From Escherichia phage 121Q, in the sequence record NC_025447.1: a stretch of 64,000 nucleotides of DNA; one strand, given 5' to 3'. The position numbers were made by a program, and so were the translations under genes. The notes beneath the pieces are model-generated. The model was given only the letters and a program-made list of their open reading frames with translations, was not told the origin of the DNA and did not search any database. This document shows positions 8,660 to 28,108 of this stretch, in pieces; position 1 is the first letter of the stretch, and each line of letters opens with the position of its first letter.

Positions 8660-8995
<336 letters not shown>

Positions 8996-8996
8996 A

Positions 8997-9179
8997 ATGA
9001 CACACGAAGAATGGATGTACAAACAGCATAAAGAACATGACTGCTTTGGGAATGGTATTCGTCAGGTACATTATGATATTCTCAAAGATATAAATTTATT
9101 CATAAAATATGTTTTGGATGAAAATAAACATTGGTTTATATATGAGATTGCATATAGAAACTCAAATAAACAAAAATAA
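8997..9179 (+). CDS. small protein, MTHEEW family
   Basis: Product MTHEEWMYKQ...; track ORF 8979-9179 trimmed to the family ATG. Confidence 0.4.
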   Translation: MTHEEWMYKQHKEHDCFGNGIRQVHYDILKDINLFIKYVLDENKHWFIYEIAYRNSNKQK

Positions 9180-9193
9180 ATAAGGAATATATT

Positions 9194-9412
9194 ATGGAAA
9201 CAACGTTATTTGAAGTTATTCAAGCATTAAAAACTGGTGATGACATTCAAGTATTGCTACATGGTTATCGTTTAAAAGGCACTGTGGTTTTAGTTAATGA
9301 CACAACGTTAGTTATTGCCGAAACAAATCCATATGATAGTAATCAAGTTGCTAATATCCATATTGATATTAAAAGCATTATTGGTGTAGGCGTAAATAAA
9401 AATCAAGAATAA
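9194..9412 (+). CDS. hypothetical protein
   Basis: ORF track; AAGGAA RBS-like upstream. Confidence 0.4.
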   Translation: METTLFEVIQALKTGDDIQVLLHGYRLKGTVVLVNDTTLVIAETNPYDSNQVANIHIDIKSIIGVGVNKNQE

Positions 9413-9490
9413 CAAATGTTTTTGAAAAAAACCAGAAAATGAATGATTTTTTTGGACAACTCAAAAATATATGATATAATAATTAGTACA

Positions 9491-9580
<90 letters not shown>

Positions 9581-9584
9581 ATAT

Positions 9585-9680
<96 letters not shown>

Positions 9681-9689
9681 CTAAAAACC

Positions 9690-9854
9690 ATGACGCATGA
9701 AGAATGGATGAATGATATTAATTTTAGATATTCGGGTATCGGTAGTTGGCGAAAATATCATTGGGAAATTATTTCAGACCCAGCAGAATACGATAAACTT
9801 ATAAACCATGAAGTATATCCGTGGTTCTTTATTGAAATAATGGTACGAATATGA
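9690..9854 (+). CDS. small protein, MTHEEW family
   Basis: 54-codon ORF MTHEEWMNDINFRYSGIGSW...; stop overlaps next ATG (ATGA). Confidence 0.45.
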   Translation: MTHEEWMNDINFRYSGIGSWRKYHWEIISDPAEYDKLINHEVYPWFFIEIMVRI

Positions 9855-10011
9855 CGCATGAAGAATGGATGAATGACATTAATTTTAGATATTCGGGTAT
9901 CGGTAAATGGCTAAAGTATCATTGGGAATTCATTTCAGAGCCACATATGTATGATAAACTTATCAACGATCCAGCATATGAAATGTACTTAATTGAACTA
10001 CTGGTACGAAT

Positions 10012-10015
<4 letters not shown>
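9851..10015 (+). CDS. small protein, MTHEEW family
   Basis: 54-codon ORF MTHEEWMNDINFRYSGIGKW...; ATGA overlaps at both ends. Confidence 0.45.
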
Positions 10016-10595
<580 letters not shown>

Positions 10596-10599
<4 letters not shown>

Positions 10600-10627
10600 C
10601 TAAATAATTCAGTACTGAGGATATTAA
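10596..10627 (+). promoter_or_regulatory. sigma70-like promoter variant (TTGACT ... TATTAAT)
   Basis: Same TTGACTAAATAxTTCAGTACTG core as neighbouring promoters. Confidence 0.4.
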
Positions 10628-10656
10628 TATGTTTAAAGATGAACGTCCAGATTTGT

Positions 10657-10694
<38 letters not shown>

Positions 10695-10699
10695 GAATT

Positions 10700-11040
10700 C
10701 CACAATCAGACGTATATGGTGTAAGCTACGTCGATGCAATCCAGAACAAGATCTCTGGTACTCTAGGAAGTGGTGAATGTTAACCTAGACGGGTTTGATA
10801 ATTGGACGATAGGCAATTATTACTTGACTAGCAGGTTGAAACTAGAGGTGACAGTCCTTCACCAAACTGGAAAACCGGATGGACTTTTATTTAAAAGGGT
10901 AAGGCGTGGAAATATGTTTACAGAAGTTGCTTTTAGTAGCCTGTACGCCCCACGACAAGGTAGCCGAAAGGTAAGTTAAAACGGGTGGTTATAAAGCTGA
11001 ATTAACAGCGGCGTTTAAAAGCGTCACCATCCATTTTTTT
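10700..11040 (+). ncRNA. candidate structured non-coding RNA (unclassified)
   Basis: About 340 nt with no ORF, GC-richer than flanks, just downstream of a consensus promoter; GNRA-type hairpins (e.g. CCGAAAGG); ends in a T-run. Confidence 0.25.
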
Positions 11041-11056
11041 AATTAAAGTTGGCGAT

Positions 11057-11809
<753 letters not shown>

Positions 11810-11826
11810 TTCACATGATATAGGGA

Positions 11827-12088
<262 letters not shown>

Positions 12089-12096
12089 GAATCTTC

Positions 12097-12498
12097 ATGA
12101 AAAAGAATGACTTGATCAAAATGCTCCAAGAGATTGACGGCAATCCAGAGATTGTTATTTGGAATGGCTATGTCGATGATTATATGAACATCGAAAAAGG
12201 CTTGACTAAAATCACACTAGTCAAAGAAACTGAACAGTTCCTTCTGAACGCATTAGAGCATGAATGGTGCGAACGTAACAAGACATTCGACATTCCAGAA
12301 GACCAACGAACTAAGATTGCAGAACGTGCTAAAGAACTTCATAAGAAGCGTGAATACGATTTCCAGAACCCATATGTTACTGAAGAAGAATTCAATCGCT
12401 GGTACGGAAAAAGAAAGTTGACAAAGTATGTTCTTTCACCTAAACTACGTGGTAAGACTTCTCTTGGTGTATTCAATGCATCTGACTTAGATTACTAA
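12097..12498 (+). CDS. hypothetical protein (paralog of 13138-13353)
   Basis: ORF track; N-terminus MKKNDLIKMLQEIDGNPEIVIW resembles MKAKDLISILQKNPEADILIH. Confidence 0.45.
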   Translation: MKKNDLIKMLQEIDGNPEIVIWNGYVDDYMNIEKGLTKITLVKETEQFLLNALEHEWCERNKTFDIPEDQRTKIAERAKELHKKREYDFQNPYVTEEEFNRWYGKRKLTKYVLSPKLRGKTSLGVFNASDLDY

Positions 12499-12508
12499 GG
12501 AAAACAAA

Positions 12509-12829
12509 ATGATGTGGTATTCAAATGTACCGTGTGAACCTAAATATATTCAGATTTCACATAATGCACTGAAAGCGTTCTGTGATAATTGCAGTACTAA
12601 AGATTATCACTTCGAAGACTTCAGAACGTTGATTTATGACCATCACTGTCAGCCAGCAACCAAAGATGGTATGTTTGTAATTGAACAATTCTTTCATGGT
12701 AAGGTATTGCAAATTGTTGCTGATTATCTGAAAGCAATGGGATATATTATCAAAGATGATTATCTTGATTTAGAAGGTGAATGCATTGTTGATGGTTATG
12801 ATGGTGTACTGATGAATTGGACATGGTGA
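12509..12829 (+). CDS. hypothetical protein
   Basis: ORF track. Confidence 0.45.
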   Translation: MMWYSNVPCEPKYIQISHNALKAFCDNCSTKDYHFEDFRTLIYDHHCQPATKDGMFVIEQFFHGKVLQIVADYLKAMGYIIKDDYLDLEGECIVDGYDGVLMNWTW

Positions 12830-12833
12830 TGAA

Positions 12834-13136
12834 ATGATTGCAACAATGATGATTGTACTTATCCCAATAGTACTAGTAATTCTAGTGACTTCATATGGTG
12901 CAACCACAACTATTGAAGATCTAAAAACACATTACGCTATCGTCTTTAGTGAAGCACATGAAGACTTTGGTACAGTACTGACCGATAAGACTTATATTGC
13001 AACTAAATGTAAGTACTACCGATTCTGGGAACGTTCTGACAAATACCACTACAGAGATGAGAAAGGCGTGAATCAGTACTTAGACGTACTGGATGCATTC
13101 TTGAAACCTTACTATACAGTAACCGAGGTAAAATAA
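12834..13136 (+). CDS. hypothetical protein with N-terminal transmembrane segment
   Basis: ORF track; hydrophobic N-terminus. Confidence 0.4.
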   Translation: MIATMMIVLIPIVLVILVTSYGATTTIEDLKTHYAIVFSEAHEDFGTVLTDKTYIATKCKYYRFWERSDKYHYRDEKGVNQYLDVLDAFLKPYYTVTEVK

Positions 13137-13137
13137 C

Positions 13138-13353
13138 GTGAAAGCTAAAGATTTGATTTCAATTTTACAGAAAAACCCAGAAGCAGATATTCTTATTCAT
13201 GCTTCGCCTTATGATGACTATGCGATTGGTAGTTGCGAAACTGCTCATTCATATCAAGCAGGGGACACCGCTGTTGAAGAGTCTGGTGAAGATTTTTCGG
13301 AATCATTTGATGAAGATGGAAAACTCTTAGTACCAGTCATCATTCTCTCATAA
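13138..13353 (+). CDS. hypothetical protein (paralog of 12097-12498)
   Basis: ORF track; likely GTG start. Confidence 0.4.
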   Translation: MKAKDLISILQKNPEADILIHASPYDDYAIGSCETAHSYQAGDTAVEESGEDFSESFDEDGKLLVPVIILS

Positions 13354-13360
13354 AAGAACG

Positions 13361-13393
<33 letters not shown>

Positions 13394-13442
13394 CAGGGGA
13401 GGTTGTAATTCCCGATTCAGTAGCTTTTTAAGCTGTTCCGTG

Positions 13443-13543
<101 letters not shown>

Positions 13544-13562
13544 AGAGGTACTTCGAGTATGC

Positions 13563-13629
<67 letters not shown>

Positions 13630-13704
13630 TAATTGACATAACTTTGAATGGAGTGTATTATGTTCCAAGAAGAAAACTGGGGTTTTTAACATAACGGGGA
13701 ATGT

Positions 13705-13750
<46 letters not shown>

Positions 13751-13755
13751 GTGCT

Positions 13756-13794
<39 letters not shown>

Positions 13795-13795
13795 A

Positions 13796-13837
<42 letters not shown>

Positions 13838-13838
13838 G

Positions 13839-13889
<51 letters not shown>

Positions 13890-13895
13890 TAATTA

Positions 13896-13968
13896 GCCGA
13901 CTTAGCTCAGTAGGTAGAGCGTTCCTCTTGTAAGGGAAATGTCACCAGTTCAATTCCGGTAGTCGGCA
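13896..13968 (+). tRNA. tRNA-Thr (anticodon TGT) candidate
   Basis: Acceptor GCCGACT/AGTCGGC, D-arm GCTC-AGTAGGTAG-AGCG, anticodon loop CTTGTAA, T-loop TTCAATT; one T-stem mismatch. Confidence 0.65.
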
Positions 13969-13980
13969 CAAAATAAAGGT

Positions 13981-25266: not shown

Positions 25267-26232
25267 GTGAAAAAGCTTGATTTAAATACAATTGCCGAAG
25301 AAGTTCTGGATGAATGTTTTTCTAATGAAGAAGTCAACACACTAGAAGCCTTAGATTTCGTTGAAGATAAAGATGAAAATGAAGGTAAAGTACAAAGCAG
25401 TTTCAAATATAATATTACACTTAAGCGACCACCAAATGTTTCCAATGAAGATCTAATTCGTGATATTCAAGCTGGTATCAATGTAAAGAAAAACACTGAA
25501 CTGTTAGTTCGTTACAATTATGGACTTATTATTGATGTAGCAAGTAAATGTACTTGTTATATCCCATTTGAAGATAAGATTTCATATGGTGTTGAGGGGT
25601 TCATGAGAGCACTAAAAACCTTTGATCTTAATAAGAATGTGAAGTTCATTACCTATGCTTCTTCTAGTATTTACATGACAGTTTATAACGAAAGTTCTGA
25701 CGCTAACTATATGGTACACTTCCCACGTTATATGAGTGTTCATAAGATCAAAGTAAAAAGATTCTGTCAGGAATATATGCGTAAACATGGTGTTCGCCCA
25801 ACTCCTGAAATAATCTCAGAGGGTACTGGGATTGAGATTCAGCATGTTAATAACTGTTTGTTATTTCAAAGCGAATACACTTCTCTGGATGCACCATTAG
25901 ACGGTGTTACCGATGGTACACTAGGTGACATTATTCATTCACCTGCTTCTGATTTTAACCTCAATGTTGATAGTATTCGTGCACCTTTACGTTATGCTAT
26001 CAATGAACTGACTAACGAATTGAGTACTAAAGAACGTGAGATTATCCAGCGTGTTCATGGTCTAGGTGAATATGAACCTGAAACGCTTCGTGAGATTGCT
26101 GATAATGGTTTTGTTGATGATAATGGAAAATATGTTAAATCCCGTTCATCAATACATCGAAAGTACAGTGAAGCTATGCAAAAGCTTAAGAAGCTAGTAC
26201 TTGCAAAAGGGTACGAATACGAAGATTTCTAA
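25267..26232 (+). CDS. sigma-70 family RNA polymerase sigma factor-like protein
   Basis: GTG start after AGGAG; region-2-like LVRYNYGLIIDVASK...GVEGFMRALKTFD...KFITYASSSIY and region-4-like C-terminus; motif match by eye only. Confidence 0.55.
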   Translation: MKKLDLNTIAEEVLDECFSNEEVNTLEALDFVEDKDENEGKVQSSFKYNITLKRPPNVSNEDLIRDIQAGINVKKNTELLVRYNYGLIIDVASKCTCYIPFEDKISYGVEGFMRALKTFDLNKNVKFITYASSSIYMTVYNESSDANYMVHFPRYMSVHKIKVKRFCQEYMRKHGVRPTPEIISEGTGIEIQHVNNCLLFQSEYTSLDAPLDGVTDGTLGDIIHSPASDFNLNVDSIRAPLRYAINELTNELSTKEREIIQRVHGLGEYEPETLREIADNGFVDDNGKYVKSRSSIHRKYSEAMQKLKKLVLAKGYEYEDF

Positions 26233-26238
26233 AGAAAA

Positions 26239-26266
26239 AAGGTTGGCTTATGCCAACCTTTTTTTA
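26239..26266 (+). terminator. rho-independent terminator
   Basis: AAGGTTGGC-TTAT-GCCAACCTT followed by TTTTTT. Confidence 0.6.
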
Positions 26267-26289
26267 TGGGATGAAGTAAAAGTTTGTGA

Positions 26290-26880
26290 TATAATTATCT
26301 TGTACAATTCTGTTGGCATGATATTCATGTACCTGATCCACTCGAAAACGTAGAGGGCAGTTGAGCAGTCCGACAGTGCGAACAGCAAAAGAAACCCGTT
26401 AGATGTGGGCATAGTTTGAACCCCTCACGGCAATGCGGCTGTATAAAGAACCACGTTAGGATAGCTGGTGGTTCCTTGATAGACATATAAGGATAACACC
26501 TTACGAATTATCTAAGGGAGAGTTATCAAATTTTGTACAGGAAAGTTGCGTCCAGAATTTGAGTACTCACATTAAGTATTTGATTGCATAGATACTTAAT
26601 GAAGATACACTATGTTTAAAAGTGTAGACCGTCATATGAAACTGAAGTAGAGAGAAACAGGATGACCCGCTTTCGCACTCGTTATGAGTAATCTTCAATG
26701 CAATAGCTCTGATACCATCAGCGTCAAATTTCCCTCCTTGTGGGGGGAAGAAAAATCCCTTCCTCAAATCCCGTCAATATTAAAAGTCCTTGACAGTTAT
26801 TAATCATTCGCGTAGAATACGTAGTATTAGAAGCGAACAGACATCTCGAAGAGATGGATGATTAACCATTAAGGAATATC
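26290..26880 (+). ncRNA. candidate large structured non-coding RNA (unclassified)
   Basis: About 590 nt without a plausible ORF in a densely coding genome; GC-richer than flanks; TGTGATATAAT promoter-like at 26285-26296. Confidence 0.25.
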
Positions 26881-26882
26881 CA

Positions 26883-27092
26883 ATGAATTCAGTAATCTTT
26901 TTAGTAGTCGCTTTCTCTGTTAATTCCGGTATACAAATAACCCCAATGAATTCCATGAATCAATGCATAGCAGTACGTGATAGTACATACGAACAAGTAA
27001 ACAAAGATATTTGGATTACAGTTAATAAAGAACAAATGTGGTGTTACAATAGTAATACTAACACAAAGCTTATTGTAGGACAAACTCAATGA
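26883..27092 (+). CDS. hypothetical protein
   Basis: ORF track. Confidence 0.4.
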   Translation: MNSVIFLVVAFSVNSGIQITPMNSMNQCIAVRDSTYEQVNKDIWITVNKEQMWCYNSNTNTKLIVGQTQ

Positions 27093-27319
27093 GTTATGGT
27101 GTTCGTTTTGAGATTCGTTCTATTGTCATCGATGCAGAGAAACAAGTATCGTTAGATGGTGATATACGTGAAATTTATCTATCATGTATCCGTGCGAAAT
27201 CTGAAGCAGATGCCTTAGTACAAATGTATAGTTTTAACTTTTCAAATGGATTCTATTTGGTACGAGTTGTTGAAGTTAAAAAAGTAATTCTTGGTTGTTG
27301 CATAGAAGGAATAATGTAA
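27089..27319 (+). CDS. hypothetical protein
   Basis: ORF track; ATGA overlap. Confidence 0.4.
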   Translation: MSYGVRFEIRSIVIDAEKQVSLDGDIREIYLSCIRAKSEADALVQMYSFNFSNGFYLVRVVEVKKVILGCCIEGIM

Positions 27320-28108
27320 ATGAGCACTATCGATGAACTGATTCAACGGAATTCAAAATATTACCAACCATCAGAAATTGTGGATAACATTACTAAATCT
27401 GAGTTTGGACCGAACACACGCAAACTCATTCATGTAATGTCACGTGATGGCTTTAAATGTGATTGTTGTGGTGAATCAAATGTAGTATTCACTTTACACA
27501 AGCACAGTACTAAAGAACGTTATAAATTCAGACCTTATGTACTTAAAGGGAAACGCCTTGTACGCATGACGTTAGACCATAATGTACTGGACTGTCTTCA
27601 GGGCGGTAATGATAAAGAGAACATGACTGCATTGTGTGAAGATTGTAACGCATTACGCCAGCATAAGTTTGCTGAGTACAGTGAGTTTAAACACTGGTAT
27701 CATAACGCGGATCGTTCAATCGAGCCTGACGTTAACTACTGCTTCATTGAGTACATTAAGAATGCCAAAGATACATACATTCTTAAATCAATGTCACCTA
27801 TTACCGTGTTTCCTGAGAACCTATTCACTACATTAAAGAATAGTTTTATTGTCGGTGATATTGATGCATTCAAGTATTTTGACAAAGGTGCAAAACATTT
27901 TGAAATTCAATGTCTTAGTACTGCACTATGTAAACTCATTAAAATTTACATAAAAGAGTATTTGGGTATTGACAATGTACGTGTACCAGAGTATACTTTT
28001 TCTATTGAATTCGATTGTGAATCAATTAAAGAGTTTGGAATTCTTTTCAATAAACAAATAGAACTTGCAATTCAAAACGAAATCAAGTACTATACTACTA
28101 ACATTTAA
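27320..28108 (+). CDS. HNH endonuclease (putative homing endonuclease)
   Basis: CDCCG ... TLDHNVLDCLQGGNDKENMTALCEDCNALRQHK matches the HNH catalytic motif. Confidence 0.7.
   Translation: MSTIDELIQRNSKYYQPSEIVDNITKSEFGPNTRKLIHVMSRDGFKCDCCGESNVVFTLHKHSTKERYKFRPYVLKGKRLVRMTLDHNVLDCLQGGNDKENMTALCEDCNALRQHKFAEYSEFKHWYHNADRSIEPDVNYCFIEYIKNAKDTYILKSMSPITVFPENLFTTLKNSFIVGDIDAFKYFDKGAKHFEIQCLSTALCKLIKIYIKEYLGIDNVRVPEYTFSIEFDCESIKEFGILFNKQIELAIQNEIKYYTTNI

Follow-up and report, generated by a model that had tools for sequence, protein, structure and literature searches.

Evidence for a new family of structured RNAs in a long intergenic gap of Escherichia phage 121Q and in its RaK2-like relatives

What fills the long gap behind the sigma-factor gene in Escherichia phage 121Q? 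We addressed this in a stretch of 64,000 nucleotides (nt) from its genome (NC_025447.1), called the window below, within which all positions are counted. The gap (26267-26882) is GC-richer, holds no credible open reading frame (ORF) and lies behind the terminator of the sigma-factor gene and an extended -10 promoter. A sequence-only reading, made without database searches, had suggested a structured RNA at this place. We conclude that about 26303-26780 on the plus strand is very probably a member of a genuine new structured non-coding RNA (ncRNA) family. The best explanation as a whole is an uncatalogued ncRNA gene family of about 480-580 nt, with its own promoter, which would act in trans as a folded particle; we give this reading a probability of roughly 0.6. 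The trans-acting particle, taken by itself, has about even odds, and every specific biochemical function considered for the RNA is doubtful at best.

The window is 99-99.8% identical to Asteriusvirus (PBECO4/121Q-like) jumbo phages, which include PBECO4, G17, phAPEC6, Sharanji and others. About 26332-26785 also matched distant RaK2-like jumbo phages at about 68-74% identity, mostly in unannotated DNA. Among these carriers were Serratia BF, Pectobacterium CBB, Cronobacter GAP32, Salmonella 7t3/Munch, and phages of Yersinia, Erwinia, Klebsiella and Xanthomonas. Gene neighbourhoods varied among them, with small genes on the denV side in CBB and GAP32 and endonuclease VII together with the baseplate hub in 7t3. 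Each record gave three to five matching places, which suggested several copies per genome. The whole genome of PBECO4 indeed held four diverged paralogs on the same strand, each in an unannotated gap of 0.6-0.8 kilobases (kb): at about 194.9-195.6 kb (the window copy), 93.6-94.2 kb, 304.9-305.5 kb and 37.9-38.6 kb. Five loci each were found in CBB, GAP32 and fHe-Yen9-04, and in IMG/VR there were four in a 121Q-like contig and at least two in a contig taken to be RaK2. IMG/VR was searched with two independent motif scans followed by profile confirmation, and nearly all of the contigs with copies were about 350-380 kb long or were probable fragments of phages of this kind. A metagenome scan contributed 81 further stretches. 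All loci together amounted to 112 near-full-length matches, 91 of them distinct sequences. Among 50,697 phage records, the carriers were only about 60-69 RaK2-like jumbo phages.

The window copy matched the family profile over its whole length. With nhmmer there was a single match in the window (26261-26853, E = 8e-124), and covariance model R1 scored 110.4 bits at 26568-26706. No second copy was found inside the window by blastn, nhmmer or the covariance model with filters off. The diagnostic invariant blocks of the family are also present in the window copy, namely CGGCRAYRCGGC...AUAAA, GAUAGA, AAGGGA and GACCGU...AACCCGC.

Compensatory changes were visible already in an alignment of six sequences. 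Clustering of the first 47 sequences at 80% identity gave 15 groups (median pairwise identity 0.63), and 46 distinct sequences from this parent set, the window copy first, made up the alignment used for counting (A2). RNAalifold on the raw MAFFT alignment returned a partial and partly wrong fold and was set aside. Helices were located instead by scanning pairs of columns and by inspecting the alignment blocks, and were then written onto A2. The resulting model has 114 base pairs in 23 helices. Observed pairing was 91.1% of cells, compared with 75.0% after shuffling and 38-42% when the partner was slid by one to three columns. Changes on both sides were seen at 78 of the 114 pairs (shuffled, 60; slid, 29-34) and in 750 cells (shuffled, 217; slid, 86-129). 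In 500 shuffles the pairing and both-side changes never came up to those observed, and by these counts the consensus helices carry compensatory support. Seven helices were 100% paired with both-side changes, and three of the seven are crossing helices. The four crossing (pseudoknot) helices, PKa to PKd, were all 100% paired except PKc (97.8%). Among paired cells, G.U occurred 289 times and A.C 87 times, an excess which points to the plus strand as the functional RNA. Comparative evidence gives each copy a compact fold of two domains, with about 20 helices and four crossing (pseudoknot or long-range) ones among them. The cross-genome conservation and compensatory change that the sequence-only reading had named among its checks were both found, and its proposal of a structured RNA stands. 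The other paralogs of this phage, the range of the family and the pseudoknots were beyond what the letters alone could reveal.

Could the region instead be a degenerate or unconventional protein-coding one, for example through a 66-codon ORF on the minus strand? Some automated annotations place three to six small hypothetical proteins here; most curated records leave the region blank. The ORFs of the gap (66, 54 and 53 amino acids on the minus strand, 39 on the plus strand) had no PHROG family, whereas all flanking ORFs have one. Their frames are broken by indels among the homologues, and indels throughout A2 are not multiples of three. In addition, the substitutions are compensatory in helices and not codon-periodic. 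The GC content is 0.39-0.455 over 26200-26900, compared with about 0.26-0.34 in the upstream genes, and the next credible ORF, which has a phage protein family, starts only at 26883. The long GC-richer gap was thus described correctly from the letters alone, as was the 66-codon frame as spurious. We consider the probability of a coding region to be negligible.

The fold of the window copy, all on the plus strand, begins with P1 (26310-16 with 26370-76), which encloses a variable hairpin and P2. Seven of its eight pairs changed on both sides and it was 96.7% paired. P2 (26333-43 with 26353-60) has the conserved loop GAAAAYGUA, with 7 of 8 pairs changed on both sides and 90.3% paired. PKa, a 3-bp helix of the form GNA/UN'C (26365-67 with 26377-79), crosses P1, and its middle pair is UA in 22 sequences, AU in 14 and CG in 10. 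Conserved UGA and GAA flank PKa, and tandem sheared G.A pairs might form beside it. P3 (26382-86 with 26438-42; 100% paired) encloses P4 (26396-99 with 26427-30; also 100%), the single pair 26403-26425 (AU:22, GC:19) and P5 (26407-09 with 26421-23; loop CAUAGUUUGWA). P5 occurs in a short and a long form and is a larger element in some paralogs, and one copy (L044) caps P4 with UUCG instead. PKb joins AUG at 26433-35, inside P3, with CAU at 26484-86, in the invariant GAUAGACAUAU. Its pairs are GC:33/AU:13 at one position and UA:44/CG:2 at another.

The P6 hairpin (26448-54 with 26468-74) changed on both sides at all seven pairs, with up to four pair types per position. It is followed by the conserved strand GAUAGAYRUAU, the P7 hairpin (26489-92 with 26499-502) and the invariant AAGGGA at 26514-26519. 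The base of P8 (26520-23 with 26565-68) was 91% paired, and three of three pairs covary. On P8 the window copy bears a module hairpin, whose stem pairs 26528-35 with 26553-60 and whose 17-nt loop, UACARNAWAGWUSCGUC, is conserved. Other paralogs have this module on P12 instead, and PBECO4 copy D has one in each place. A relocatable module is typical of peripheral tertiary-contact elements in large ribozymes and ornate RNAs, and by analogy the P8/P12 module may be such an element.

In the 3' core (26570..26704), all ten pairs of P9 (26570-79 with 26592-601) covary, and the P9 loop forms PKc (26583-89 with 26698-704; 5 of 7 pairs covary). P10 pairs 26606-10 with 26622-26. PKd (26631-35 with 26662-66; 3 of 5 pairs covary) crosses both P11a (26643-47 with 26693-97) and P11b (26650-54 with 26670-74), each of which was 100% paired with four of five pairs covarying. 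P12 pairs 26677-80 with 26686-89. GACCGU is invariant in this core, and the invariant single-stranded junctions of the family include GAUAGAYRUAU, AAGGGA, GACCGU and AACCCGC.

Two direct repeats follow, flanking a G/C-rich 3' hairpin. Repeat 1 is CAUCAGCGUCAA (26717..26728, plus strand; family consensus AUCAUCGUCAG) and repeat 2 is AAAUCCCGUCAA (26767..26778, plus strand; family consensus AAAUCUCGUCAG), the last conserved block. The hairpin between them, P14, reads UUCCCUCC-UUGU-GGGGGGAA (26730..26749, plus strand). It was 87.8% paired; its changes are mostly one-sided, from C-G to U.G, and at two pairs both sides changed. About 45% of copies have a terminator-like hairpin with a U-run inserted between repeat 1 and P14. 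A local hairpin around repeat 1 (P13, 26711-15 with 26721-25) was rejected; it was 74% paired with no both-side changes, and neither register was supported. A scan of the whole alignment for both-side covariation recovered the model helices and added the pair 26403-26425, and it gave no base-pairing partner for the repeats. The YGUCA core of the repeats was identical in all 16 repeat combinations seen, and the base before GUCA was C in both repeats or U in both in every copy with readable repeats.

These repeats bear on the possibility that the RNA is a ribozyme, with a catalytic multi-pseudoknot core and with the two GUC-A repeats as sites of self- or trans-cleavage or ligation. Cleavage there would release the 3' hairpin or define the 3' end. 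The complexity of the fold is like that of large ribozymes, with fully paired crossing helices, invariant junctions and the relocatable module, and the two repeats have their YGUCA core in common. No Rfam ribozyme family matched, however, and the repeats have no covarying guide sequence by the scan just described. The helix flanked by UGA and GAA recalls stem II of a hammerhead, and we checked the motif UGAG...CGAA together with the GUC repeats. A hammerhead has a three-way junction in which CUGANGA, GAAA and a NUH cleavage site follow a canonical order; of this, the RNA shows only UGA-helix-GAA. Its 5' junction measures 4 nt instead of CUGANGA, the expected GAAA is shortened and its nucleotides vary (GAA, GAU, GCA, GGA, AAA), and the 3-bp 'stem II' encloses the 3' strand of P1. 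There was also no match to a Rfam hammerhead. On balance we regard a ribozyme as unlikely.

The boundaries of the RNA are marked on both sides. The sigma-factor ORF (25267-26232; phrog_351) is followed at 26235..26265 by a terminator-like hairpin which lies outside the RNA and forms its upstream boundary. It consists of A6, GGTTGGC (26241-26247), the loop TTAT, GCCAACC (26252-26258) and T7 (26259-26265), and the A-run and T-run on its two flanks give it the appearance of a bidirectional intrinsic terminator. The UE-S1 record annotates a terminator at the same hairpin. A simple terminator scan missed it, probably since the A and T runs lengthen the stem. The predicted promoter of the RNA (26267..26295, plus strand) comprises the upstream element TGGGAT at 26267-26272 and TATAAT at 26290-26295, separated by a spacer of 17 nt in which the extended -10 TG occupies 26287-26288; TGTGATATAAT stands at 26285-26295. 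TGnTATAAT was invariant across all RNA copies, and TGGGAC/TGAAAC was kept 17 nt upstream of the -10 hexamer. Both the strong terminator and the promoter-like site of the sequence-only reading are therefore borne out. The extended -10 motif TGNTATAAT occurs at 30 sites in the window against 9.8 expected (about 3-fold), 27 of them on the plus strand. The sites span 3667-60034 (e.g. 9472-9480 and 11445-11453), and two lie directly upstream of transfer RNA (tRNA) genes. This enrichment and strand bias imply a standard promoter type of the phage, and TGNTATAAT appears to be its main promoter type for the host RNA polymerase.

In one PBECO4 copy (copy B, L007:43652-44194) and in the group of L013, L037 and L046, a stable hairpin with a U-run comes right after the promoter -10, at the predicted 5' end of the transcript. 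It may serve as a 5' protective stem-loop or as an attenuator, or it may be the terminator of the upstream gene, overlapping the promoter.

Downstream, a separate sigma70-like promoter (26790..26818, plus strand; TTGACA-17-TAGAAT, 11 of 12 matches) would serve the ORFs from 26883 on. The stretch between the end of the conserved part (26780) and 26880 thus consists of this promoter and the leader of the next ORF, and a similar TTCTTGAC element follows several other RNA copies. The ORFs themselves (26883-28108) are two small conserved ones of function not known (phrog_37707 and phrog_28392) and then a 262-amino-acid HNH endonuclease (phrog_35175). None of the three accompanies the RNA at other loci.

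A leader or riboswitch acting in cis would instead govern how far transcription reads into the genes that follow. It may run on past the window copy, which lacks a clear terminator, and other copies place the terminator-like hairpin after the large folded domain, as riboswitch expression platforms do. Nevertheless, the downstream genes differ at every locus and are sometimes on the opposite strand, a promoter of their own follows the element, and the conserved P14 and repeat 2 lie past the putative terminator. We rate the chances of a leader as remote. The RNA rather appears to be a stand-alone unit, with a conserved promoter, a separate promoter downstream and no conserved neighbouring gene.

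The family was also found in bacteria. Full-length members were carried by 4 of 185,579 species-representative genomes: an Enterobacteriaceae metagenome-assembled genome, Silvania hatchlandensis, Serratia sp. and the chromosome of S. fonticola (E-values 1e-86 to 1e-99; found by the second motif and then by the profile). All four lie at the edge of an integrated element, with genes for large serine recombinases, CI-like repressors or two tandem ParB-like proteins next to the RNA. In S. fonticola, the element adjoins ParB-like genes and a recombinase. The ordinary host genes nearby include thiM, rof/tilS and a peptidase M20 gene that we take to be dapE-like. The main sequence common to the bacterial loci is the RNA, and two loci also share a stretch that overlaps the CI-like gene. 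The elements of Serratia sp. and S. fonticola, of unlike architectures, have about 1 kb in common at 86% identity, centred on the RNA; it looks as if a cassette moves between them.

Among 5,426 complete E. coli genomes, two carry the RNA, in an island of about 10 kb between ffs and ybaA. The island of E. coli LR-29-1 (NZ_AP027515.1, about 3474000-3484000) contains IS3, integrase remnants, a small serine recombinase and the three genes of a candidate defence system, PDC-M45 (DuOB, DUF488, mSLOG-DUF4326). In this island, about 640 nt downstream of the RNA are also unannotated. Its copy has the same promoter arrangement as the phage copies, and each bacterial island holds a single copy. No protein neighbour proved to be conserved, either among the phage loci or among the five bacterial ones. 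With the promoter conserved in the E. coli island and the RNA as the main shared sequence, it seems that promoter and RNA move as one cassette, without a dedicated protein. The positions in lysogeny modules and in a defence island hint weakly at a role in phage-host or phage-phage conflict. Judged by these searches, the family appears to be one of RaK2-like jumbo phages and a few bacterial islands.

The spread of the copies and their surroundings could also fit a transcript-primed replication origin, in the style of ColE1 RNA II or T4 oriF, in which the repeats would be iterons and a G-run would aid an RNA-DNA hybrid. The PBECO4 copies are spread over its 348-kb genome, at 38, 94, 195 and 305 kb. 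Every copy comes with a promoter of its own, there is a G6 run close to the 3' end, and the two direct repeats change in parallel. PBECO4 is annotated as encoding RNase H proteins, and the ParB-like and recombinase genes beside the S. fonticola element would be in keeping with an origin. However, a primer has no need of about 20 covarying helices with four pseudoknots, and the strong excess of G.U over A.C points to selection at the RNA level along the whole length. A terminator-like hairpin precedes the G-run in many copies. In the bacterial loci compared, no initiator protein co-occurs with the RNA; cumulative GC skew has no inflection at the site; and no homologue was found among the 72,556 plasmids of PLSDB. 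An origin therefore seems very unlikely to us.

The several copies per genome raise another possibility, that of a self-assembling 'ornate' RNA analogous to ROOL and GOLLD, forming a homo- or hetero-oligomeric particle of RNA only with the paralogs as distinct subunits. Several conserved paralogs per genome would agree with this, as would the similar size, the phage or prophage habitat, the stand-alone gene and the elaborate fold. ROOL, GOLLD and OLE are reported to form RNA-only multimers (PMC12286853). On the other side, homology to ROOL or GOLLD is absent, we identified no conserved self-complementary loop that covaries between copies, and the bacterial islands have one copy only. We think such a particle improbable, about as much so as a ribozyme.

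How, then, would the RNA act under the favoured reading of a trans-acting particle? We suppose that the host sigma70 RNA polymerase would transcribe it from its own extended -10 promoter. As the same promoter class precedes at least two phage tRNA genes, this would probably happen early in infection. The RNA would then work in trans in the form of a folded particle, either by itself, oligomerised, or in complex with a component that gammaproteobacterial hosts have conserved, rather than as an antisense RNA, a messenger RNA leader or a DNA site. Since the RNA is the main sequence shared among the bacterial integrated elements, no dedicated protein partner seems to travel along. With phage hosts from E. 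coli to Xanthomonas and no travelling partner gene, a partner would be a widely conserved host factor, or there would be none; the candidates might be the translation, RNA-processing or transcription machinery. That each phage has four to five paralogs of ancient divergence suggests that they are specialised or assemble with one another, more than that they merely raise the dosage. For the two YGUCAR repeats on either side of the 3' hairpin, the simplest reading is that of recognition or processing sites setting the mature 3' end.

Several points weigh against this explanation. Both ends of the RNA are predicted ones, the 5' end from the spacing to the -10 hexamer and the 3' end from the stop of conservation after repeat 2. 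The window copy has no recognisable terminator and no U-tract anywhere, and in other copies the terminator-like hairpin precedes P14 and repeat 2, which sits uneasily with a single mature RNA. The sequences that yielded the helix model are also those used for the counts, and the slid and shuffled controls remove this circularity only partly; moreover, paralogs and orthologs share descent. The folding energy was unremarkable (z = -1.27; 12 of 100 shuffles folded as well), in a nested-only calculation that ignores pseudoknots, so that stability is uninformative as evidence. Nothing points to a partner or an activity.

Is the family already catalogued? A cmscan with the 4227 families of Rfam 15 gave nothing at the gathering score in the window and nothing at E<=10 inside 26300-26790, and 13 further copies gave nothing at E<=5 on the element. 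The only weak matches were flanking terminator hairpins, which are terminator look-alikes. GOLLD (RF01998) and ROOL (RF03087) were rejected, with no covariance-model match in 14 copies. Group I (RF00028) and group II introns, RNase P, transfer-messenger RNA (tmRNA), 6S, HEARO and the known small ribozymes had no match either, at the sensitivity of those models, and ARAGORN found no tmRNA in the window. The Rfam comparison that the sequence-only reading had proposed thus assigned no class, and GOLLD and ROOL, which it had cited as precedents only, remain just that. We also found no description of the element in the literature on jumbo-phage ncRNAs, PBECO4/121Q, GOLLD/ROOL and structured-RNA surveys, and the genome papers of UE-S1 and fEgEco12 do not mention the region. 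Nor did these searches bring up RNA-sequencing data on any family member. Lying outside every catalogued family by sequence and by predicted structure, the RNA would represent a new class.

PBECO4 (NC_027364.1) has two more large unannotated gaps, at 151710-153706 (2.0 kb) and 156817-157841 (1.0 kb), the second of which meets the 3' end of the window. The RNA family was absent from both by nhmmer.

Why would such an RNA matter? To our knowledge, very few large (>400 nt) RNAs with multiple pseudoknots are known in bacteria and phages. RNase P, group I and II introns, tmRNA, OLE, GOLLD, ROOL and raiA have each proved to be a machine or else a broadly interesting riddle that is still unsolved. 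The most far-reaching possibility is that the family forms a new class of natural RNA, catalytic or self-assembling, kept as four to five specialised paralogs per RaK2-like phage, with a cassette occasionally borrowed by prophages and defence islands for conflict; we hold this to be doubtful. If it were true, examples might be a ribozyme cutting or joining RNA at the GUC-A repeats, or a hetero-oligomeric RNA particle capturing a universal host machine. The retention of four to five ancient paralogs across genera argues that the RNA matters to RaK2-like phages, and a role in conflict is hinted at by its presence on integrated elements and on an island of the defence type. It fills 'empty' gaps of 0.6-0.8 kb that are unannotated or given small hypothetical ORFs in most of these records. 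The carriers include cultivable E. coli phages (PBECO4, 121Q, phAPEC6, G17, Sharanji), so experiments are feasible, unlike for most orphan large RNAs.

Several known systems resemble the RNA in part. With RNase P RNA, group I introns and tmRNA it shares its size, long-range and crossing helices, invariant junction strands and peripheral elements that shift between helices, whereas flanking exons or a tag ORF are lacking here. Its helix order, with PKd crossing P11a and P11b, is presumably also unlike the P3/P7 scheme found in group I introns and unlike P4 in RNase P. The ColE1 RNA II and T4 oriF primers are likewise promoter-driven structured transcripts of about 0.5 kb, G-rich near the 3' end and present in several copies per large genome, but the fold here is far more elaborate and better conserved, and the family is absent from plasmids. 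A counterpart of the antisense RNA I was not seen either, though none was looked for.

In the jumbo phage PA5oct, four ncRNAs were defined by RNA sequencing (ncRNA001-004; PMC7318152). They are also abundant ORF-free transcripts, of 236-619 nt, four per genome in a jumbo phage of the same broad clade. The PA5oct ncRNA001 and ncRNA002 region (MK797984.1, 8263-8498 and 21951-22401) showed no similarity to the family by nhmmer --max or by covariance model R1 with filters off, so that homology to these two lends no support for expression. No classification of either was found.

The RNA differs from ROOL and GOLLD in several further respects: the hosts here are those of Enterobacterales or Xanthomonas jumbo myophages versus Firmicutes or rumen phages, there are four to five diverged paralogs per genome, and the window copy is not beside a tRNA cluster. 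The six tRNA genes that ARAGORN found in the window are clustered at 8682-13969 (Gly, two Ser, Met, Asn and Thr), and one tRNA-Ser was reported with the unusual anticodon ACT. The likeness to ROOL and GOLLD is that of stand-alone, elaborately folded ncRNAs of 500-800 nt, of function not known, encoded by phages or prophages without a fixed protein neighbour. The wider category, that of large ornate phage ncRNAs of unsettled function, therefore already has precedents.

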